Shown here piece by piece: positions 1,257 to 30,462 of a stretch of DNA of 64,000 nucleotides (position 1 is the first letter of the stretch; each line of letters starts with the position of its first letter). A program made the translations under genes and the position numbers. Origin of the DNA: Parcubacteria group bacterium M6-OD1-3 (lineage in GTDB: Bacteria; Patescibacteriota; Minisyncoccia; Moranbacterales; UBA9337); the NCBI GenBank assembly GCA_003056165.1, contig LSNR01000014.1, forward strand, positions 6,408 through 70,407, read 5' to 3'. Below the pieces are notes generated by a model, which searched no databases, had not been told where the DNA came from, and saw only the letters and a list, made by a program, of their open reading frames with translations.

Positions 1257-2561
1257 TCAATAAAGATCATAGCTTGTGTTAAGCCAAATCTTCTCTGACT
1301 TAAACGGTGCTGTGTCGCCTGAACCATTTGGTTCATATTTAAATACGACGAAGTTTCCTGTGGAATGTTGGGCATGGATGCCAAACTCTATCTTTTTGTT
1401 ATTGAAAATATCAAAGTCTTTAACCAGGACATAATCAAATGCTCCAGCTGTGAAATACTGGACAACTTCATTCACAAAAGATGTTCCAGTTGATTTGAAA
1501 GCGGAAAATGCTCCACCAGTGAAGTTGAAAAACATTAGATCAACCTTCTTATCCCCATTATAATCAATAGCCTCTGGATAGGCATCAGAACTGCCTCCTT
1601 GACACCACACGCCTCTATTTCTCCATGTGGTGCCGTCCGATTCCCAAACAACTAAGTTTTTTGTACTAGAAGCATATAGTGCCAAATCTTCATATCCATT
1701 CCCTGTGAAATCTCCAGTAAGACTTTTCTGGAAAATATTGTTTCCAGAAAATGTTCCAAATCCTCCATTAGGAATTGATGTAGAATTAAAACTACTTCCA
1801 TTATTGAGAAAAACCTTAATAATGCCGTTCGTATAGTCGATAACGGCGATGTCGTCTTTCGCTCTGTCGCCTCCGGTTTCGTCCGCCTTATTAAAGTTTA
1901 AAGCAATAATATCGTCGATATTTTGCATATCGACTGATACTAGCCACTCTTGTTTCGGCAGAAATGATCCGACAAAGGTTGAACTATCTTGAGGTATTAC
2001 CCAAACTTTCCCAGTTGTTTTACCGATAACTACAAACTCCTCATATGAAGAGCTGAACCTTCCTGATGCAAATATTACTGGCTCATCAAAGATATAGTCT
2101 TTGTTTGCAACAATATTTTCCAAGTAATTTGTATCGGTAATGCTCAGGTTTCGAGCACTCTTGAGAGACAGCGTTGTCTCACTTGTTTGCGTTTCAATCA
2201 GAGCTGGCACAAGAGTTATCTCATTTGAAGAACCAGATTCTTCACCATTTGTATTGTAGCTTTTTATGACGCAGTAACAATTTTTTTCCGTTGCTGTGTC
2301 TAATGTGACGGAAATAGTGTACTCGATATTGGACATATCGGTTATATTTCCTGTCGGAATATCTAAGGGATTACCCCCCGTGATGTCTATTCCTGTATAT
2401 GGTCCACCACGAGTTTTTCCACAGTACACTTTGAAACCTTCAACTCCTGTGGTACTGCTTATGTCCCATTGGAACGATACATCGATTGTTTTTAGTTCTG
2501 CAAATGAATTTGTTGCAGAAAGAAAAAGAATGAATGTTGCGATGATGATCAGTGTTCTCAT
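1257..2561 (-). CDS. secreted protein with FG-GAP/VCBS-like repeats (signal peptide MRTLIIIATFILFLSATNSFA)
   Basis: N-terminal signal peptide. Repeated DxxGDGxxD-like motifs (DFTGNGYEDLAL, DYNGDKKVDLMFFN). Confidence 0.45.
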   Translation of the reverse strand: MRTLIIIATFILFLSATNSFAELKTIDVSFQWDISSTTGVEGFKVYCGKTRGGPYTGIDITGGNPLDIPTGNITDMSNIEYTISVTLDTATEKNCYCVIKSYNTNGEESGSSNEITLVPALIETQTSETTLSLKSARNLSITDTNYLENIVANKDYIFDEPVIFASGRFSSSYEEFVVIGKTTGKVWVIPQDSSTFVGSFLPKQEWLVSVDMQNIDDIIALNFNKADETGGDRAKDDIAVIDYTNGIIKVFLNNGSSFNSTSIPNGGFGTFSGNNIFQKSLTGDFTGNGYEDLALYASSTKNLVVWESDGTTWRNRGVWCQGGSSDAYPEAIDYNGDKKVDLMFFNFTGGAFSAFKSTGTSFVNEVVQYFTAGAFDYVLVKDFDIFNNKKIEFGIHAQHSTGNFVVFKYEPNGSGDTAPFKSEKIWLNTSYDLY

Positions 2562-2691
2562 TTTGTCCTCCTAGTATTATTTTTTGTCAAGATGCTGGTT
2601 GTTGTAAATATAACAAAGAATGTTTTATTTTACAATACCTTGCTTATTTAGTATAATTAAATCATTGAAAAATATAGCATAAATAACTCAT

Positions 2692-3984
2692 ATGAATATA
2701 TTAATAACAAATCATCATTTGCACGATTTTGCTGGTTCGGAATTATTTACTTTCAATTTGGCTATAGAATTAAGGAAAAGAGGTCATCATATTTTTTGTT
2801 TTTCTCCATTGCTGGGTAATATTGCTGATAAAATTAAAGAAAATGGAATAACTGTAATAGATAATATTCGTGATATTGAAAATAAAAAAATAGACATCAT
2901 TCATGCTCAACATAATACGACAGCAATTCTCGCCAGATCAATTTTCCCCAATGTTCCGATTGTTTTTACAGTGCATGGTATTCTACCAGAGTTGGAACAG
3001 CCACCATCTATTGATTTAGATATTGCCAAATTTGCGGTTATTAGTGAGGAAATTAAAGATTATTTGATAAATAATTATTCCATAAAAAAAGAAAAAATCA
3101 GATTGATAAGAAATTTTGTTGACTTCAATCGTTTTAAGCCGACGAAAATTATAAACAAATCCCCAAAAAATCTTCTTGTTTTAAGTAACCACTACATAGA
3201 CAAGACAAAAAACATCATAGAGAATGCCTGTAATGAGTTTAATATAAAATTTGAACATATCGGTTTACCGGAAAATTCGGTTGAAAATGTTGAGGATTAT
3301 ATAAACAATGTGGATATCGTAGTTACTCTGGGGCGAGGAGCTATTGAGGCTATGGCTTGTGAGAGGAATGTGATTGTATATGACATGCATGGAGGAGATG
3401 GTTATATTGATGAAGATAATTTTTTTGAAATTAGAAAAAATAATTTTTCCGGCAGAAGATTTAAAAAAGAATATTCGGTGGAGGATTTTAAAAAAGAAAT
3501 TTTAAAATATAATCCATTAACTGCCAAAAAATTAAGGGAAATTGTGTTAAAAGAGAATTCGGTAAAAAATATTGTTGATAATCTAGAATCAATTTATAAG
3601 GAAGTTTTGAAAACTGGAAAACAAATAAATTCTCAAATAAAACGGGGGGAACTTTTTTTGGAGATTCATTTTTTGGAGCAACTTTTCGCTAGAAACAATA
3701 AAGAGAAAATAAAACAGATGAATGAATCCAATCGATTAATTGAAGTGAGGGATAATGAGATAAATAAATTAAATCAAATAATCCAGCAGAAAAATTTGGA
3801 AATTCAAAAAAATGGTCAAATAGCCGATTTAGACCAAATAATTAAACAATTAAATGAAGAAAATAAAAAATTGAATTATGTGATTCAGCAAAAAGAACAA
3901 GAAATTGAAAATATGAAAAAGTCTAAATTTTGGAAATTGAGAAATAAATATTTGAAATTGAAAAAATATGCAAAAAGAAAATAG
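2692..3984 (+). CDS. glycosyltransferase family 4 (GT1/GT4 fold) with C-terminal coiled coil
   Basis: N-terminal GT4-like Rossmann region. The C-terminal 100 aa are heptad-rich (IQQKNLEIQKNGQIADLDQIIKQLNEENKKL). Confidence 0.65.
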   Translation: MNILITNHHLHDFAGSELFTFNLAIELRKRGHHIFCFSPLLGNIADKIKENGITVIDNIRDIENKKIDIIHAQHNTTAILARSIFPNVPIVFTVHGILPELEQPPSIDLDIAKFAVISEEIKDYLINNYSIKKEKIRLIRNFVDFNRFKPTKIINKSPKNLLVLSNHYIDKTKNIIENACNEFNIKFEHIGLPENSVENVEDYINNVDIVVTLGRGAIEAMACERNVIVYDMHGGDGYIDEDNFFEIRKNNFSGRRFKKEYSVEDFKKEILKYNPLTAKKLREIVLKENSVKNIVDNLESIYKEVLKTGKQINSQIKRGELFLEIHFLEQLFARNNKEKIKQMNESNRLIEVRDNEINKLNQIIQQKNLEIQKNGQIADLDQIIKQLNEENKKLNYVIQQKEQEIENMKKSKFWKLRNKYLKLKKYAKRK

Positions 3985-7347: not shown

Positions 7348-7597
7348 ATTTTTTGTATGTTATTTTTTTTATTGACATTTAATATTTCTATATTGTCCTT
7401 CTTGCAACATAATAACACATTAATATTATAGCATAGTTTAAATTATCTACAATTTTTTAAATACTTACAAAAATGTCATATCTTAAATTTAAAAAATTTA
7501 AGTTCAAAAAGCTTGAAATTTTAAATTAATAATGGTATGGTTATAGTTAATATTGAAAAAATGTAGTTCTTATAAAATAAATTTAGGAGGATGTATA

Positions 7598-9133
7598 ATG
7601 GAATTTAGTCAGTTGATGAAAGAAGTTGGAGCAGTCGGTATTCATTTTGAAAAAATGATGCCGGAGATAGAAATAAAGGCAATGACCGGTTTCCCTATTT
7701 TGATAGTTGGCGAAACCGGAACAGGAAAGGAACTTGTCGCAAAACTCATTCATAGGATGAGTAAAAGAAGCGATAAGCCTTTACAATTTGTAAATGTTCC
7801 CGCTATTAATAATGGTGTATTTGAAAGCGAACTATTTGGTCACGAAAAAGGTGCTTTCACGGATGCATCTAAAGCACGAAAGGGTGTTATTAGAGAAATT
7901 CACGGTGGAACTATCGTCTTGGATGAAATTGGCGATATGTCGCTAGAAACTCAAGCCAAAATTCTTCGCTGGCTGGAAAGTGGAGAGATTAAACCAGTTG
8001 GTTCTGATAGAGTGTTATTTGTAGATGTCAGAGTTATTGCCTCCACAAATAAAAAATTGGAGAATCTAATTGAGTCTGGTTTATTTAGACAAGACTTATA
8101 TTATAGACTAAGTTCATTGTCTATAGAAGTATCGCCTCTTAGAAAAAGTCAGGAGGCAATACTTGATCTAACAAAGTATTTTGTGGATAAAAATAAGAAA
8201 CATTTCGTTGATTTTCGTGGGAATTCCCTAGATGATCCGAGCGGAAGTGAACTCGCTAAGTTATTTAGCGAGTTGATTGAAGCAAATGCTCATTGTTCTA
8301 ATTTCTTATCTGGTAATGCCAGGGAATTGGAAAGTGTGGTGAAAGAATGGCTATTCAAGAGAGCTCTTAACTATAATAAAGAGAAAAATGCAGAAAGTCT
8401 TTTATCTACATATTATCTTGATAATAATAGTAGGTCTTCATCGAAACCAGAGTCGTCAAATGATGATAATACTAAAGTCTGTTGTGCAGATGAAGAGTCT
8501 GCTCTTGTAACTAATATTCGCAAAGCACTTATTTTATGTAAATGGAATACGAAAAATGCAGCTATATTACTGGAGTGTTCTGAAGAAGAGTTGCAAAAAA
8601 TAATCGAGGATAATAACATTTTTGTTGAGGAGGGAGATAATTATTCCATTAGCAGAGAGGATGTGAAACCAATCAAATCTTTCTCAACAGATAATCAACA
8701 TCAAATAGATGTCTTTCAAAATGCTAGCTGGCTGAAAAAAATCAACTGCAATTTTGCTGCACCCTCCAATAATGAATTGAAGGAGATCCATGATATTTTA
8801 GAGCGGAAAATTGCAGAGGTGGAGAAAGAAGTCTTTCAGATGGCAATTAACCATTTTAATGGTAATCTAAGAAAGGCTACAAGAAGCTTGGGAATAGGAG
8901 ATAAAAGGTTGAAGGCAGGACTGGAAAAATATAACATTTCTGCGGTTTCAGGTGTTCAATTGGAGGCTAATCCTGGTCCGCTAAACGAAATTCTTCTTAC
9001 TGAGGAGAACAAGTTGATTAAATTTCTTTTGATAAAAAATATGACAGCCAAAAATATTGCAAAAATTCTTGGTTATCACATTAATGCGGTTTATTGTAGG
9101 ATAAAGAGATATAATCTTAAGGAGGAAGAGTAG
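7598..9133 (+). CDS. sigma-54 interaction-domain (bEBP-like) AAA+ transcriptional regulator without a receiver domain
   Basis: Walker A GETGTGKE, then ESELFGHEKGAFTDAS (a variant of the GAFTGA loop), an arginine finger region, and a C-terminal Fis-type HTH plus a second HTH-like segment. RBS AGGAGG sits 8 nt upstream of the ATG at 7598; the ORF track start at 7553 lacks an RBS. Confidence 0.7.
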   Translation: MEFSQLMKEVGAVGIHFEKMMPEIEIKAMTGFPILIVGETGTGKELVAKLIHRMSKRSDKPLQFVNVPAINNGVFESELFGHEKGAFTDASKARKGVIREIHGGTIVLDEIGDMSLETQAKILRWLESGEIKPVGSDRVLFVDVRVIASTNKKLENLIESGLFRQDLYYRLSSLSIEVSPLRKSQEAILDLTKYFVDKNKKHFVDFRGNSLDDPSGSELAKLFSELIEANAHCSNFLSGNARELESVVKEWLFKRALNYNKEKNAESLLSTYYLDNNSRSSSKPESSNDDNTKVCCADEESALVTNIRKALILCKWNTKNAAILLECSEEELQKIIEDNNIFVEEGDNYSISREDVKPIKSFSTDNQHQIDVFQNASWLKKINCNFAAPSNNELKEIHDILERKIAEVEKEVFQMAINHFNGNLRKATRSLGIGDKRLKAGLEKYNISAVSGVQLEANPGPLNEILLTEENKLIKFLLIKNMTAKNIAKILGYHINAVYCRIKRYNLKEEE

Positions 9134-22027: not shown

Positions 22028-22771
22028 TTAAAATTGAACATTAACTGCATATTTATGTAGATTATTCAATTGAGTATTATTCAAATTCTTTGAAGCGTCA
22101 ATAGCATTTTTTATGAGACTTTTAGAAAATTCAACTGATGTTCCAACATAAACTCTTCCATTGAAATTTGCATTTTTTCGCAAATAATCTTCAATGTAAA
22201 TTTTATGTTCAGGTGTAAGTGTAGAATCAGGATTTTTTTCTAAATAGTGCGCCAATGCTTTTCTTGCCAACTTAGTAAGACTATCTCCTTGGGAAGCACT
22301 TTCAATGAAAGAACTTTCGGTTTCTTGAGAAGGAGTTTTCTCGACTGTTTGTTCCGGAGATTGTTTTTGTTCAGAAACGGTATCCGCTTTCGGTTCCTCT
22401 GATGCACTGGCATCAGTTTCTTTGGTAGCTTCATCAGTTTCATCGGCTGGCGAATTATCATTAGACTTTTCCTCGGCAGATTTATCCGTTGTTTCTGCAG
22501 TATCAGAAACTGTCGCATCAGTTTCATCAGCTTTTTTATCTTTATCGGAAGATAAATCGCTTAAAATTTTCTCAACATCATTATTCTTATCGACGGTGGC
22601 AGTTTGTTGGTCACCTCTTTTAGAATAAGAATATATTGAGGATGCAATTAGAAAAACTATCAGAACACTTACGATAATTCGGAGATTTTCCTGAGTCCAA
22701 TTTCTAATTTTTTGTAGAGTAGTCTCATCTTGTTCATCATTCATTTCATCATTTTTAAATTCATCATTCAT
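22028..22771 (-). CDS. membrane-anchored acidic low-complexity protein (hypothetical)
   Basis: A single TM helix after an acidic N-terminus. D/E/S/T-rich linker. Conserved C-terminal 90 aa. Confidence 0.35.
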   Translation of the reverse strand: MNDEFKNDEMNDEQDETTLQKIRNWTQENLRIIVSVLIVFLIASSIYSYSKRGDQQTATVDKNNDVEKILSDLSSDKDKKADETDATVSDTAETTDKSAEEKSNDNSPADETDEATKETDASASEEPKADTVSEQKQSPEQTVEKTPSQETESSFIESASQGDSLTKLARKALAHYLEKNPDSTLTPEHKIYIEDYLRKNANFNGRVYVGTSVEFSKSLIKNAIDASKNLNNTQLNNLHKYAVNVQF

Positions 22772-24469: not shown

Positions 24470-24500
24470 AAACCGCCCGCTAAACGGGCGGTTTTTTTTA
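24470..24500 (+). terminator. rho-independent terminator (aaaccgcccgctaaacgggcggtttttttt)
   Basis: Perfect 7-bp GC stem plus a T8 run. Confidence 0.85.
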
Positions 24501-24586
24501 TTTTGTCAGGGGATGGTTTGTTTTTGGTTTTTTGAAATAAAAATAGCGACTTGGTCGATAGTTTATATCTGAAAGTGGTAACGTAC

Positions 24587-24614
24587 CAAGTAACGTACCA
24601 TGGTACGTTACTTG
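24587..24614. promoter_or_regulatory. perfect 28-bp palindrome caagtaacgtaccatggtacgttacttg (candidate operator), preceded by direct repeat gtaacgtacca
   Basis: Identical to its own reverse complement. Located 50 nt upstream of CIRCE. Confidence 0.4.
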
Positions 24615-24665
24615 AAAGCGAATTGAATATTTTAAAAGTAAGTTTCAAGATAGTTATTTATTTTT

Positions 24666-24692
24666 TAGCACTCGGACTTGACGAGTGCCAAG
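24666..24692 (+). promoter_or_regulatory. CIRCE operator (TTAGCACTC-N9-GAGTGCCAA), HrcA binding site
   Basis: Matches the CIRCE consensus TTAGCACTC-N9-GAGTGCTAA with one mismatch. Immediately upstream of hrcA. Confidence 0.85.
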
Positions 24693-24711
24693 AGTATGAT
24701 ATAATGCAAAT

Positions 24712-25452
24712 ATGAATACAAGACAAGAAAAAATTTTGGGAAGTATTATTGAGGAATATACGCTAAACGCCGTTCCTGTTGGTTCTAAAGTTTTGGTTGG
24801 GAAATACAAAATTGATGCCAGTTCGGCAACTATTAGAAATGAAATGGCAGAATTGGAAAAGGAAAAATATTTGTATCAACCGCACATTAGTGCCGGCAGA
24901 ATTCCTACTGATAAGGGTTATAGGTATTTCGTGGAAGAATTGATGAAAAATAAAGAATTGACAAGACGGGAGCAAAACAAAATGCAAGAAGAGCTATTAA
25001 AGTTGAAAGCTAAAAATACAAGAATGGCAAAGACAACGGCAAAGTTATTGTCGGGATTGAGTGGAAATTTGGCGGTTAGTGGGAATTTGGATAATAATGA
25101 ATTTGTTGATTTTGGGATGAAAGAACTTTTCGAGGAGCCGGAATTTCAAGGATTAGACGAAGTTTGTCGTTTGGCAGAAACACTAGATTATGTTGATGAA
25201 ATGTTTGATAAAATTATCGGAGAGATTGAAAACGGAGAAACGAAAATTTTCATCGGTGAAGAAAATCCAGTTAAAAAGTTTTCAAATTGTTCGATGATTG
25301 TGTCTCCGTATAAATTAAAATCAGGAGAAAAAGGAATATTGGCATTGATTGGTCCAAAGAGAATGAAATATGCAAGAAATAAATCGTTATTGGAATATGT
25401 TAGAAAGATATTGGGTGGAGCAGGAATGATTTTATTGGTTGTTATGGTGTAA
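24712..25452 (+). CDS. hrcA: heat-inducible transcription repressor HrcA (short, 246 aa)
   Basis: N-terminal winged-helix region ILGSIIEEYTLNAVPVGSKVL. Sits in the hrcA-grpE-dnaK context behind CIRCE. Confidence 0.75.
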   Translation: MNTRQEKILGSIIEEYTLNAVPVGSKVLVGKYKIDASSATIRNEMAELEKEKYLYQPHISAGRIPTDKGYRYFVEELMKNKELTRREQNKMQEELLKLKAKNTRMAKTTAKLLSGLSGNLAVSGNLDNNEFVDFGMKELFEEPEFQGLDEVCRLAETLDYVDEMFDKIIGEIENGETKIFIGEENPVKKFSNCSMIVSPYKLKSGEKGILALIGPKRMKYARNKSLLEYVRKILGGAGMILLVVMV

Positions 25453-25498: not shown

Positions 25499-26407
25499 AT
25501 GAATAAAGAAAATAATAAAAAATATAAAAAGCCAAAGGCTTGGTTGATGTTGCTCACTGCTAAAGCTGTAATAGTCAATAAAAATAATGATGTTCTATTA
25601 TTAAAAAGAGCAAGTAAAGAGCGAATGCATGCTGGAAAATATGACTTGCCAGGAGGAACAATGGAGCAGGGAGAGACTGTTGAACAAGCTTTAATAAGAG
25701 AGGTTAGGGAGGAAACTGGATTAGAAATAGCTAATGCGGAATTAATAAAGATTAGTGAATATCCCGAAGGACACGAGAGATCAGATGAGTTAAAGGCATT
25801 AAGGTTTGTTGTTAAATATAATGGTGATGATTTCAAGGATGTAGTATTAAATGAAGCAGAACATACTAAATTTGAATGGTTATCGATTGATAAAGCAATT
25901 GAGAAATTATCCGATGAAGGATTTGAAAAAGAAAAAAAAGAAACTCTGATTGAAGCAAAAAAATATTTGGAAATGAAAAATAGTTTGGAGAACTGGAAGC
26001 GATGTTTAGCAGAGTTTGATAATTATAAGAAGCAACAAGAAGAAGCAAGAAAGGATACTGTGAAATATGCGACGGAAAATATTGTAATGCAGGTTCTACC
26101 AGTGATTGATAATTTTACTAGTTCAGTAGCGCATATTCCAGAAGATGAAAAAGACGGAGCTTGGGTGCAGGGAATAATGTTTATTAAAAAACAGCTAGAG
26201 GATGTTTTACGAGAGAATGGTGTAGAGGAAATTAAAGTAAAAATTGGTGATAGGTTTGATACTCAACTTTGTGAGGCGGTAGAAGACAATAGCTGTAGTG
26301 ATTGTAAGACAAAAAAGAAATTTAAGAATAAAATCAAAAAAGTTGTTTTGCAGGGATATAAAATTGGAGATAAAGTTGTGAGACCGGCGAGAGTGATAGT
26401 TGAGTAG
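25499..26407 (+). CDS. grpE: NUDIX hydrolase domain fused to nucleotide exchange factor GrpE
   Basis: N-terminal Nudix box with every GX5EX7REUXEEXGU position matched (GTMEQGETVEQALIREVREETGL). C-terminal GrpE (VLPVIDNF...GVEEIKVKIGDRFDTQLCEA...GYKIGDKVVRPARV). Confidence 0.8.
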   Translation: MNKENNKKYKKPKAWLMLLTAKAVIVNKNNDVLLLKRASKERMHAGKYDLPGGTMEQGETVEQALIREVREETGLEIANAELIKISEYPEGHERSDELKALRFVVKYNGDDFKDVVLNEAEHTKFEWLSIDKAIEKLSDEGFEKEKKETLIEAKKYLEMKNSLENWKRCLAEFDNYKKQQEEARKDTVKYATENIVMQVLPVIDNFTSSVAHIPEDEKDGAWVQGIMFIKKQLEDVLRENGVEEIKVKIGDRFDTQLCEAVEDNSCSDCKTKKKFKNKIKKVVLQGYKIGDKVVRPARVIVE

Positions 26408-26799
26408 TTCACAGTTTACGATATATATCGTCTCGGAAGACTGAATTTTACCAAGAGCAAAGCGATTGGATAAAATTCTTCTATCTCTGTCTATTAGTAG
26501 GTAGGTGTAATTTCGAAAAGGTTTAGAATAAACTTTTATTAAAGAATTTTTAAAATTTACTGAGATCACGGATAGATTATTTTTCTAATATTCGCTACTA
26601 GCTCATATTGAAAAATATATCTTCCGAGATGACAGGCGTTAACCGAGATGATAGGCATTGATTGAGATCACACGCTAGGACCGACAGACAGATGCTGGGA
26701 ACGAAGAAAAATGGAGATTTAAAATTTAAATAAATTAATAAATAATTTAAAATAATCATTGTCTAGTGATTACTAATCATTATTCAATGATAAAAAAAT

Positions 26800-28779
26800 A
26801 TGTCAAAAATATTAGGAATTGACCTTGGAACAACAAACAGCGCGATGGCTGTCGTTCAAGGAGGTAAACCGGAAATTATTGAAAATAAAGAGGGTAATAG
26901 AACAACCCCTTCAATGGTGGCGGTTAATAAAAATGGTGAAAGATTAGTTGGTCTTTTGGCAAAAAGACAAGCAGTGGCTAATCCGGAGAACACTTTGTTT
27001 TCTGTAAAAAGATTAATTGGAAGAAATTTTGATGATGCAGAAGTACAGGAAGACATTAAATTGATGCCATACAAGATTGTCAAAGGTGGAAAAGGTGAAA
27101 CAAAAGTGAAAATGGGAGACAAGGAATATACTCCGCGAGAAATTTCCGCAATGATTTTGCAAAAACTAAAAGCGGATGCTGAAGATAAATTGGGAGAAAA
27201 AATTGAAGAAGCGGTAATTACTGTGCCGGCATATTTTGATGATTCTCAAAGAAAAGCGACTAAGGAGGCTGGAGAAATTGCCGGGTTAAAGGTGAAAAGA
27301 ATTATTAATGAACCGACTGCCGCTGCCTTAGCGTACGGTTTTGATAAAAAGAAAAACGAAAAAATTGCCGTTTATGATTTAGGTGGTGGAACATTTGATA
27401 TCTCCATCTTAGAAGTTGGTGATGATACGGTTGAAGTAATATCAACAAATGGAGATACTCATTTGGGTGGAGATGATTTTGATCAAGTTCTTATTAATTG
27501 GATTATTGATGAATTTAAAAAGCAGGAAGGAATTGATTTGAGTAACGATAACTTAGCTTTACAAAGAATTAAAGAGTCTGCGGAAAAAGCGAAAATTGAG
27601 CTTTCTACCGCACAAGAAACTGAGATTAATCAACCATTTATTACTACTGATGACTCCGGTCCAAAACATTTAGTAATGACATTAAGTAGAGCTAAACTGC
27701 AAGAATTAGTCAGTGATCTATCTGCAAAAACAATGGAGCCGGTTAAAAAAGCTTTGGCGGATGCGAAACTGGAAACTAAGGATATTAATGAAGTGATTAT
27801 GGTTGGTGGAATGACAAGAATGCCTTTAATTCAAGAAGAAGTTGAAAAATTCTTTGGTAAAAAACCAAATGCAACGATGAATCCTGACGAGGTAGTGGCG
27901 ATGGGAGCAGCTATTCAAGGTGGAGTTTTGACTGGTGATGTAAAAGATGTATTATTGCTTGATGTAACACCATTGACTTTAGGATTGGAAACAATGGGCG
28001 GAATTTCTACTCCATTGATTGAACGAAACACAACTATTCCAACGAAGAAATCGCAAATTTTCTCAACAGCAGTTGAAAATCAGCCAAGTGTGGAAATTCA
28101 TGTTTTACAAGGTGAGCGAGAAATGGCGGAAGGAAATAAAAGTTTAGGAAGATTTATTCTTGATGGAATTGCCCCGGCTCCGCGTGGAGTGCCACAAGTT
28201 GAAGTAACATTTGACATTGATGCTAATGGAATTTTAAATGTTTCTGCTAAGGATAAAGCAACTGGAAAAGAGCAGTCTATACGAATTGAAGCTTCCAGTG
28301 GAGTAAGTGAAGAAGAGATTGAAAAGATGAAAAAAGACGCCGAGACTCATGCCGAAGAAGATAAAAAGAAAAAGGAAGCGGTTGAAACTAGAAATGTGGC
28401 GGAAAGTTTAATTAGCACTACCGAAAAAGCAATTAAAGAGGCTGGTGATAAAATTTCTGCGGACAAGAAAAAACCGGTTGAAGAAAAAATGGAAGCTTTA
28501 AAGAAAACTCTTAAAGATGAAAAAGCTGATACTGAGGCAATTAAAAAAGCGACGGAAGAATTTTCAACCGAAGCCCAAAAGATTGGCGAAGAGCTTTATA
28601 AAGCAACTGCTCCAGAAGGTGGAGATCCTGCTAGCCAAGCCGAAGCTTCAGCGAAGGCTGGGAGTGAAGGTCAAGCCGGAACTAAAGAAGCTCCAAAGGA
28701 TGCTGAGACAGAGCCGGCTAAAGAGGAAGAAAAGAAAAAAGACGATAGTGGAGATAAAAAAGACGAAGAGAAGAAATAG
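26800..28779 (+). CDS. dnaK: molecular chaperone DnaK (Hsp70)
   Basis: [28 protein letters not shown]-like motifs over the full-length protein. Confidence 0.95.
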
Positions 28780-28805: not shown

Positions 28806-28832
28806 AAGCGGGGCTTACGCCCCGCTTTATTA
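28806..28832 (+). terminator. rho-independent terminator (aagcggggcttacgccccgcttt)
   Basis: Stem gcggggc/gccccgc plus a T-run. Confidence 0.8.
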
Positions 28833-29598: not shown

Positions 29599-30462
29599 TT
29601 ATTTTTTTGCTAACGGGTAGCTTACTATTAAAAGCATCTTGCCACAATTTGGGCAAGAAACATCGAATAGGTCATCATAATATTCGATATTATTCTCTGG
29701 CTTTCCTTTCCATTTGCAGGCAGAGCACTCTAAGATAAGATTTTTATTATAATCCTTGTATTTAATAATTTTCACTGGTACTTCAGGTATAAATTTTGTT
29801 TCTACCATTTGTGCAAATTTTGTTGATATAACTTGTAGATCTTGTGTTAGCGGACTTTCTGGATATTTATTAATTAAGATAGTTATTGTTTCAAGATAGT
29901 TTTTTAGTAATTTTACTTTTGAAGCGTTAAACCTTACAAAAATTTGATCCCCGTCTTTTTTGTAATCTTCAATAATTTCATTTGTGTTTGCAAGGATGTC
30001 CGCTGATTTTACGAGAATAGCTTCATTAGAAAATTCTTTTATGTGTTCCTTCGCTAGCATTTTTCGTTCTTCCCATGACAATGATTTATCTGTTTCTGTT
30101 ACAGCAAGTACTAAATTTGCGACATCTTCGCCAAACCGCTCTTTTAACATTTCAAGACTGACTTTTTTCCTCTCGATGCTATCTTCTATTGTGTCATGAA
30201 GAATCCCCGCACAAATAACATCATCTTTTGCATTTGCATGAGCCAAAATTAATCCTACTGTTAGAGGGTGAGTTATATAGGGAATGTCTTTACCTTTACG
30301 CTTTTGTTTTTGATAAATTTCATGGGTCTTGGTGGCAAATTTAATTGCTTTTTGAATTTTGAAGAGGTGTTTCATATTATTATGGTAACAATAAAATAAA
30401 GAAATTTGAAATTTTTTTAAGACAACCGGGTGATATCTCGTAGAAGAAAAGAGATAACTCAA
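29599..30462 (-). CDS. HD-domain (RelA/SpoT-type) hydrolase with C-terminal zinc ribbon
   Basis: HD motif ITHPLTVGLILA...ILHDTIEDS. C-terminal CSACKWKG...CPNCGK. Confidence 0.6.
   Translation of the reverse strand: MSYLFSSTRYHPVVLKKFQISLFYCYHNNMKHLFKIQKAIKFATKTHEIYQKQKRKGKDIPYITHPLTVGLILAHANAKDDVICAGILHDTIEDSIERKKVSLEMLKERFGEDVANLVLAVTETDKSLSWEERKMLAKEHIKEFSNEAILVKSADILANTNEIIEDYKKDGDQIFVRFNASKVKLLKNYLETITILINKYPESPLTQDLQVISTKFAQMVETKFIPEVPVKIIKYKDYNKNLILECSACKWKGKPENNIEYYDDLFDVSCPNCGKMLLIVSYPLAKK

Follow-up and report, generated by a model that had tools for sequence, protein, structure and literature searches.

A Nudix hydrolase domain fused to GrpE in the predicted heat-shock operon of a Parcubacteria group bacterium

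Few components of the bacterial Hsp70 machinery vary as little in architecture as GrpE. In a stretch of 64,000 nucleotides from Parcubacteria group bacterium M6-OD1-3 (GenBank assembly GCA_003056165.1, contig LSNR01000014.1, positions 6,408 to 70,407 of the forward strand; hereafter the window, whose numbering is used throughout), we found that the gene in the grpE position between hrcA and dnaK encodes a Nudix hydrolase domain fused to GrpE. The fusion gene (25499..26407, + strand), defined by its open reading frame (ORF), Pfam, homologues and an AlphaFold2 model, comprises 302 codons plus a stop in a single unbroken frame. An in-frame stop immediately precedes its ATG, and because this ATG is the first codon past that stop, an N-terminus longer than the 302-residue call is ruled out. 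It is flanked by hrcA (24712..25452, +), which encodes a short form of 246 aa recognised by TIGR00331 (220.8 bits against a cutoff of 197.2) and Pfam HrcA, and by dnaK (26800..28779, +; 659 aa; PF00012, E 7e-259). An initial annotation, made from the sequence, had described a 302-aa gene in the grpE slot of an hrcA-grpE-dnaK operon, with a canonical Nudix box in its N-terminal part and GrpE motifs including VLPVIDNF in its C-terminal half. The ORF and the Pfam and TIGRFAM assignments of the neighbours agree with this placement, and both sets of motifs are present. The single ORF without a frameshift also held, in that the frame is intact, the identical protein is found in NCBI and Logan, and homologues carry both domains.

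Domain architecture and the Nudix-GrpE junction

The AlphaFold2 model, for which a 104-sequence alignment was the input, reached a mean predicted local distance difference test score (pLDDT) of 89.2 and a predicted template modelling score (pTM) of 0.62. In it, residues 1-17 form a tail, 18-136 the Nudix domain, 141-211 one long unbroken helix, 221-239 another helix and 242-301 a beta-domain. The Lys-rich tail (25499..25549, +) is poorly conserved (1.4-1.8 bits per column; pLDDT ~60 for residues 1-10). The Nudix domain that follows (residues 18-137; 25550..25909, +) was matched by Pfam NUDIX PF00293 over residues 21-137 with 74.3 bits (cutoff 21.1; E 1.2e-20) and modelled as an alpha/beta fold with pLDDT 89-97. 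A Foldseek comparison with the PDB returned 3grn at E 2.9e-11 with a target TM-score of 0.73-0.75; there were 606 matches with E <= 0.001, and the 50 listed were all Nudix proteins. By sequence, the domain matched the same structure (E 2.9e-12) and 1mut (E 8.4e-11). Both are of the MutT type, 1MUT being the E. coli protein and 3GRN a 'MutT-related' protein of Methanosarcina mazei without assigned function, and both share the Nudix box and the alpha/beta/alpha fold with the fusion. 3grn additionally shares R-x8-G-K-[WY]-D-L-P-G-G upstream and E-H-x4-W downstream; the latter corresponds to E121-H122...W127, which is conserved in the family.

The Nudix box GTMEQGETVEQALIREVREETGL (residues 53-75; 25655..25723, +) is an exact fit to GX5EX7REUXEEXGU. 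In the 104-sequence alignment, G53, E59, R67 and E68 are present in 104/104 sequences, E72 in 103, E71 in 101 and G74 in 95. Of the 172 fused sequences whose box could be scored, 159 have an intact REx2EE core, 5 a conservatively changed one and 8 a degenerate one. The initial annotation had made its reading depend on conservation of the box in orthologues, and with 164/172 boxes intact or conservatively changed this conservation was found. A subgroup in which the box has one extra residue (x8 spacing) keeps all acidic residues. Since the box is canonical and the catalytic residues are conserved across fused orthologues, an active hydrolase is expected, and the Nudix half is probably catalytically active. 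In the eight degenerate boxes (P0113, P0139, P0141, P0145, P0146, P0147, P0150 and P0183), between one and four of the catalytic residues are gone. One of them, P0145 (QQS61352.1), is encoded at the same operon position in a closed 1.19-Mb Moraniibacteriota genome. A further protein, P0261, aligns to the family profile over its full length with no recognisable Nudix box, and looks like a fully dead Nudix domain.

Residues 141-302 form a complete GrpE. Pfam GrpE PF01025 matched residues 143-301 with 118.6 bits (cutoff 25.8; E 2.9e-34), the match running from position 12 to position 163 of the 165-position profile. Species-level GrpE equivalogs of NCBIfam stayed under their cutoffs (best 86.3 against 137), as would be expected for a divergent lineage of the Candidate Phyla Radiation (CPR). 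Solved GrpEs were also matched by sequence: 4ani (E 1.5e-14), 3a6m (E 2.3e-10), 1dkg (E 1.1e-4) and 9blt. The helices 141-211 and 221-239 and the strands of 242-301 were modelled with pLDDT 79-91, and in the model their arrangement is that of the GrpE plan. The second bundle helix and the C-terminal beta-domain (26159..26404, +) are assigned from Pfam, the PDB matches and the model. Residues A171, N175, P201, N205, F206, G225 and G286 are invariant in the family, and conservation reaches 90% or more at F173, Y176, K177, K178 and R295. The AEFDNYKK and LPVIDNF motifs, both within the stalk helix region, are invariant or nearly so. We aligned an E. coli GrpE sequence equal in length to 1dkg_A; its DnaK-contact positions F86, G122 and R183 align with Y190, G225 and K292. 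Canonical GrpEs (E. coli 1DKG, Geobacillus kaustophilus 4ANI and Thermus thermophilus 3A6M) thus share with the fusion the stalk, the bundle helices and the beta-domain, the AxFxNYxK and LPVxDNF motifs and the position in a CIRCE-controlled hrcA-grpE-dnaK operon (CIRCE, controlling inverted repeat of chaperone expression), and at the counterparts of F86, G122 and R183 the kind of residue is kept. On these grounds the GrpE half looks functional.

The two halves are joined through the stalk helix (residues 141-211; 25919..26131, + in the AlphaFold2 model), in which GFEKEKKET, the motif of the Nudix C-terminal helix, leads into the paired helix of GrpE and on to the four-helix bundle's first helix. 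The junction was modelled as one unbroken helix with pLDDT 95-97. From the invariant W127 of the Nudix domain to the invariant N175 of GrpE there are 48-49 residues in 102/104 sequences. Information over residues 141-160 amounts to 3.0-3.1 bits per column, the level of the Nudix core. The helix-starting motif DGFExEKxET also ends the stand-alone Nudix protein P0188 (L084), and a variant of it is found in P0198 (L085). Because the junction motif also ends these stand-alone relatives, a C-terminal helix native to this Nudix family appears, from sequence and model, to have been joined in the fusion to the stalk helix of GrpE. The coiled-coil linker of the initial annotation is therefore real as a helix, but no linker has been inserted: the helix is the stalk of GrpE itself, continuous with the Nudix C-terminal helix.

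In the alignment with E. coli GrpE, E. coli residue 64 is the first position and corresponds to fusion residue 168. The fusion has ~27 helical residues before this point and E. coli GrpE has roughly 25, if its helix starts near residue 40, as we assume. Because these helix lengths are similar, the model places the Nudix domain where canonical GrpE has its disordered N-terminal tail. That tail is ~35 aa long in canonical GrpE, whereas the fusion has a folded Nudix domain of 120 aa after a short Lys-rich tail. GrpE is a parallel-stalk dimer, as established from 1DKG and 4ANI, and by analogy the two Nudix domains would lie together at the stalk tip. At 1.5 Å per helical residue, the distance in the model between the Nudix domain and the cleft-opening beta-domain would be ~75-100 Å.

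Within the beta-domain, the alignment and the model delimit a variable Cys/Lys-rich loop (residues 258-282; 26270..26344, +) that contains C258, C265, C268 and KTKKKFKNKIKK. Its pLDDT is 68-75, with a lower-confidence stretch at 261-280. Loop length in the family ranges from 17 to 57 residues; here the loop is ~5-8 residues longer than in solved GrpEs, which have a shorter loop at this place than the Cys/Lys-rich one of the fusion. At position 258, usually the His of a 'HEA' motif, 58 of 104 sequences have H, 27 have C and 18 have M, and loops of the Moranbacteria subclade carry CxxC, CCx4C or CCHx3Cx4C. The same CxxC is found in the unfused Parcubacteria GrpE of L004, and the Cys loop is for this reason independent of the fusion. 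The Lys-rich, Cys-containing insertion pointed out in the initial annotation is thus a real loop, but with its variable length and its presence in an unfused protein it is not specific to the fusion. A metal or redox site in the loop is possible on the basis of its cysteines. The redox regulation of mitochondrial GRPEL2 is said to be Cys-based. GRPEL2 is a member of the GrpE family that is reported to be redox-regulated (PMC6089081), and it invites comparison with C258, C265 and C268; the Cys sites of the two proteins have no sequence relationship, and the CxxC here also occurs in unfused relatives. Separately, the related GrpEs P0217, P0175 and P0151 carry extended N-terminal tails that are Cys-rich and metallothionein-like, CCGDKQGCCGEKGCCDEQGNECCKDDKKCCGDKGCC being one example. 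Such tails, taken with the Cys loop, hint that GrpE is repeatedly linked to metals or redox chemistry in these lineages.

Distribution of the fusion in CPR genomes

A word-indexed search of 5.8 billion proteins gave 2350 matches. The best 120 of these were domain-checked; they range from 100% to 38% identity and all carry PF00293 and PF01025, which bears out the co-occurrence of the two domains that the initial annotation had proposed to look for. Named relatives belong to Candidatus Moranbacteria, Parcubacteria and Pacebacteria, and the identical protein was found on 3 contigs, from NCBI and Logan. An exhaustive HMMER search covered 1.84 billion representatives at 50% identity. With the family hidden Markov models (HMMs), the Nudix-GrpE order was seen in 64 of the best 150 representatives, three of the 64 having two Nudix domains. 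We collected 182 fused sequences, down to ~30% identity.

The gene order hrcA-fusion-(hsp20)-dnaK is kept in L001, L003, L006, L007, L081 and L082, whose GC content is 0.36-0.54. In L004, L008 and L009, where HrcA is ~60% identical to that of the window, GrpE is unfused and carries an acidic or Lys-rich disordered tail. Because these equally related loci have an ordinary GrpE, the fusion appears to have been gained or lost within the clade. A neighbour-joining tree of 155 GrpE domains interleaved fused and unfused proteins, with 27 Fitch changes, on a short alignment of 138 columns in which many 'unfused' proteins may be metagenomic fragments truncated at the N-terminus. The Nudix-domain tree separated the x7 and x8 types of box spacing only loosely.

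A Nudix domain of the family type was present within ~5 kb at 0 of 74 unfused GrpE loci, among the matches listed in the genome collection. The one separate-gene case that was found is L085. There, at 2414-3873, hrcA is followed by a stand-alone Nudix gene of the window's type (P0198) and then by a Nudix(x8)-GrpE gene. Since this stand-alone Nudix gene lies between hrcA and the grpE gene, the association of Nudix with the heat-shock genes is workable without physical fusion; the link exists at the level of the operon and at that of the protein. Nudix-Nudix-GrpE proteins of ~450 aa were also found. Both boxes are intact in 4/5 of them, namely P0121 (L082 6001-7353), P0027, P0100 and P0124, and P0054 retains only the GrpE-adjacent box. 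Between the Nudix-Nudix-GrpE gene and hsp20 in L082 lies a 23S_rRNA_IVP (PF05635) gene (7451-7792). P0239, on a 903-nt contig from the Joint Genome Institute (JGI), is a GrpE with an N-terminal DUF3850.

Two further candidates were discarded. P0188 was considered as a split fusion, and its downstream gene encodes a membrane protein. Labels of Micavibrio, Bdellovibrionales and Fimivivens on some fused loci would place the fusion outside the CPR. These loci encode a short HrcA 55-60% and a DnaK 73-76% identical to those of the window, against 40% and 70% for a Saccharibacteria locus, and because their HrcA is closer to the window's than that of Saccharibacteria, the labels were judged unreliable.

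Full-text literature searches and a 2025 review of GrpE-like factors (PMC12987570) contained no description of a Nudix-GrpE protein, and a paper in which both words occur proved unrelated. The statement of the initial annotation that the architecture is undescribed is upheld for the literature searched, but the databases already hold hundreds of deposited fused proteins, labelled 'nucleotide exchange factor GrpE' only. Related arrangements are known. Anabaena All4144 is a GrpE with a helix-turn-helix that is reported to be still an exchange factor and a thermosensor (bioRxiv 10.1101/2025.04.14.648684). The domain added in All4144 binds DNA, whereas that of the fusion is an enzyme domain which would replace the N-terminal tail. 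NadM-Nudix proteins (NMN, nicotinamide mononucleotide, adenylyltransferase plus ADP-ribose pyrophosphatase; 2QJT, 2QJO), which were among the weaker sequence matches, likewise join a Nudix domain to a nucleotide-handling partner. Their partner is a metabolic enzyme of the same pathway, in contrast to the chaperone cofactor without known metabolic link that is the partner here.

Operon structure and heat-shock control

Upstream of hrcA we found a CIRCE operator, the binding site of HrcA (TTAGCACTCGGACTTGACGAGTGCCAA; 24665..24691, +), with 1 mismatch to TTAGCACTC-N9-GAGTGCTAA; the consensus was matched in 0/100 shuffles. CIRCE elements without mismatch precede hrcA in the fused loci L001, L003, L006, L007 and L081, and none was found in L082. 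A candidate sigma-70-type promoter (24678..24705, +), assigned by consensus match, has TTGACG and TATAAT separated by 16 nt with an upstream TG, and agrees with 11/12 consensus positions. Its -35 hexamer TTGACG falls within the CIRCE spacer, and the promoter ends seven bases before hrcA. The segment with CIRCE and promoter is 82% identical over 49 nt to that of L001, the closest genome locus. Because CIRCE overlaps the -35 element of the operon promoter, the fusion is expected to be under heat-shock control, and these signals assign it to a predicted HrcA-repressed heat-shock operon hrcA-(nudix-grpE)-dnaK. The hrcA-grpE-dnaK placement of the initial annotation is thereby extended by control through CIRCE.

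A GC-rich hairpin after the dnaK stop (28806..28827, no strand assigned; 9-pair stem with 7 GC pairs, scored on the minus strand as a consensus match) is the likely end of the operon, and together with a second candidate hairpin terminator at 24470-24494 it brackets the operon. An Rfam scan of the operon region gave sub-threshold matches only, on the upstream terminator. Also upstream, GTAACGTACC occurs three times at 24578-24611, as two direct copies and one inverted. Within this array lies a perfect 22-bp palindrome, GTAACGTACCATGGTACGTTAC (24590-24611), ~55 nt upstream of the CIRCE/promoter segment and unique in the window. As a conserved operator it was rejected, being present in 0/83 of the loci L001-L083, which are mostly non-CPR GrpE loci; it may be an extra operator of the heat-shock operon of this strain.

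The HrcA of 246 aa was matched by the 338-position TIGR00331 model as two stretches. Because HrcA of related CPR genomes (L001-L009, L081, L082 and L085) has 238-249 aa, the short form appears from these comparisons to be a trait of the lineage and not a truncation. Between the fusion gene and dnaK lies an AT-rich spacer of 392 nt without an ORF (26408..26799, +), in a window with ~33% GC. In the relatives L081 and L082 this gap is occupied by an hsp20 gene; sequence comparison showed no hsp20 remnant in the spacer and no conservation with the spacer of L001. The family HMM detected no second GrpE and no further family-type Nudix within the 64-kb window. The conserved M159 was considered as a start codon from which GrpE could be made without the Nudix half; inspection by eye gave no convincing ribosome-binding site.

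Two neighbouring genes lie on the opposite strand. Just past the dnaK operon, 29599-30462 (-) encodes a 287-aa HD_4 protein with a C-terminal CxxC...CxxC pair. HD_4 is, we assume, a hydrolase domain of the SpoT/RelA type, and the protein is possibly a small alarmone hydrolase. On the other side of the operon, 22028-22771 (-) encodes a 247-aa protein with an N-terminal hydrophobic segment and a long, acidic low-complexity middle rich in Ser, Thr, Glu and Lys.

Substrate class and competing readings

The best-scoring NCBIfam models for the Nudix half were MutT TIGR00586 (60.7 bits against 97.9) and NF008044 (57.1 against 148), and neither cutoff was reached. The fusion is in this respect not a demonstrable orthologue of MutT, from which it also differs in that its C-terminal helix continues into the GrpE stalk. 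Other substrate classes were considered and rejected. LLLKRASKERMHAGKYDLPGG fits 9/11 fixed positions of the NuCoA motif LLTxR[SA]x3Rx3Gx3FPGG, which we take to be a marker of coenzyme A (CoA) pyrophosphatases, but the motif is strict in 0/182 and relaxed in 22/182 fused sequences, and the CoA pyrophosphatase profile NF007980 scored 26.3 bits against 134. Nudix subfamilies are reportedly marked downstream of the box by Pro-16, Tyr-17 or SQPWPFPxS, a scheme said to stem from Dunn et al. in 1999. Conserved residues past the box are E/D87, F/Y88 and P89, that is 12-14 residues after L75; ADP-ribose, ApnA and NADH pyrophosphatases were set aside, as there is no marker at position 16 or 17 after the box and no SQPWPFPxS. 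NAD(+) diphosphatase NF001299 scored 38 bits against 158. The initial annotation had named ADP-ribose, Ap4A (diadenosine tetraphosphate) or an alarmone as the substrate. This choice was not supported, in that no equivalog cutoff was reached and MutT-like models scored best. Ap4A levels rise under stress, and in E. coli the dinucleotide forms cross-links with DnaK, GroEL and ClpB (PMC10148737); nothing in the fusion sequence singles it out.

We favour, with modest confidence, a bifunctional heat-shock protein in which a regular GrpE is combined with a MutT-like Nudix domain that clears a stress nucleotide. Residues 141-302 would be the regular GrpE of the organism, opening the nucleotide cleft of DnaK and sharing with hrcA and dnaK a transcript whose promoter is repressed by HrcA at the CIRCE operator. 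Residues 18-137 would be a MutT-like pyrophosphohydrolase in place of the tail, with its helix continuous with the stalk. In the dimer, the paired Nudix domains would sit at the far tip of the stalk, beside the substrate-binding domain of DnaK. There they would remove a stress metabolite of nucleotide type, such as a damaged (deoxy)nucleoside triphosphate ((d)NTP), Ap4A or another dinucleoside polyphosphate, or a nucleotide cap. The Nudix domain would act when and where the DnaK machine is induced, the two activities would be independent, and the ADP and ATP of DnaK itself would not be its target.

Several observations weigh against this bifunctional reading. Every NCBIfam equivalog score is far under its cutoff, and the Foldseek matches in the PDB are generic Nudix proteins (MutT, NudC, RppH, NUDT15, Ap4A hydrolase) with similar scores. 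Eight fused lineages without the catalytic residues still keep the Nudix domain, and such retained dead domains point, on sequence grounds, to a role beyond catalysis. A junction of fixed length that is conserved like the catalytic core also seems more than a mere tether would need. The single-GrpE status covers the 64-kb window, so that a second, plain grpE elsewhere in the genome is possible, and the dimer geometry and the placement of the Nudix domain next to DnaK rest on other GrpE structures.

The conserved junction and the dead domains are what a regulatory module would explain. Here the Nudix domain would be a switch that binds or consumes a ligand and tunes nucleotide exchange and client release to the nucleotide pool, with the stress nucleotide altering either the pairing of the stalk or the contact made to the substrate-binding domain of DnaK. 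We regard this as possible but rather unlikely. It fits the near-constant junction, as conserved as the Nudix core, the single continuous helix of the model, and the Nudix fold kept despite catalytic loss in at least eight lineages plus P0261. In E. coli, the N-terminal tails of GrpE bind the DnaK substrate-binding domain via 17-IIM-19, an interaction that unfolding of the stalk modulates, and binding of the tail to the substrate-binding groove is thought to promote client release (PMC12915176); according to the 2025 review, binding of the groove has not been seen structurally (PMC12987570). Other N-terminal additions to CPR GrpEs (Cys-rich tails, DUF3850) make this end of the protein appear a recurrent docking point for regulatory modules. 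On the other hand, the conservation of catalytic residues in 95% of fused sequences implies that turnover matters and not binding alone, and the DGFExEK helix motif that ends the stand-alone Nudix proteins P0188 and P0198 is a trait of the Nudix family, not an adaptation of the junction. L085 has the same Nudix type as a separate gene, and the contact between Nudix and DnaK is purely hypothetical. The specific form of this proposal, nucleotide-gated control of Hsp70 in which the domain, fixed rigidly in the position of the pseudo-substrate tail of canonical GrpE, senses and consumes a stress nucleotide (Ap4A, an oxidised NTP) and signals through the continuous helix to alter the stability of the stalk or the DnaK contact, is unlikely in our estimation.

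If the fusion were instead neutral, neighbouring heat-shock genes would have been joined in a streamlined genome, and a house-cleaning Nudix would gain co-expression only. The Nudix gene that stands apart in L085, after hrcA and before the gene for GrpE, the unfused GrpEs in the equally related L004, L008 and L009, and the interleaving of fused and unfused proteins in the neighbour-joining tree all suit this account. It is nevertheless quite improbable, because fused proteins as distant as ~30% identity still share a highly conserved junction of constant length, at least two Nudix sequence types (x7 and x8 spacing) occur beside GrpE, along with tandem forms, and dead domains have been kept, not discarded. 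Nudix hydrolases are not known to prefer plain ADP or ATP as a rule, which counts against a direct coupling, where the Nudix domain would cleave the nucleotide expelled from DnaK or a derivative bound in its cleft, so that exchange could not be reversed or the product would be channelled. Nucleotide-releasing and nucleotide-cleaving modules do share one chain, and the cross-linking of Ap4A to DnaK (PMC10148737) is in its favour. We nevertheless consider direct coupling very unlikely, because the two sites would sit at opposite ends of the stalk, with the Nudix domain and the beta-domain at either end of helix 141-211, ~75-100 Å apart in the model, and the fusion is also kept in lineages with a dead Nudix domain. 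Of the earlier suggestion that hydrolysis is coupled to Hsp70 cycling, a direct hand-over of ADP or ATP is the version that the geometry disfavours. A frameshift, misassembly or gene-calling error is almost certainly not the explanation: the frame is unbroken with its ATG right after an in-frame stop, the identical protein comes from two sources and 3 contigs, and the 182 homologues of the same architecture come from independent assemblies, one a closed genome. By these comparisons the fusion appears to be selected, not an artefact.

Research into how GrpE works currently concentrates on its disordered N-terminal tail and on the stalk as a thermosensor. A CPR clade in which an apparently active hydrolase replaces the tail via a rigid helix is a natural experiment on the function of that tail, and the fusion is an easily cloned candidate for a physical link from nucleotide-derived stress metabolites to chaperone control. 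The finding also corrects hundreds of database entries that name the GrpE half only. If the nucleotide-gated reading were true, it would reveal an unrecognised regulatory input to Hsp70, in which the release of clients by the chaperone follows the nucleotide pool, and the long-debated stress dinucleotides would gain a direct chaperone target. If the two halves act independently, the fusion would still flag a heat-shock-regulated Nudix hydrolase in organisms that rely on nucleotide salvage.

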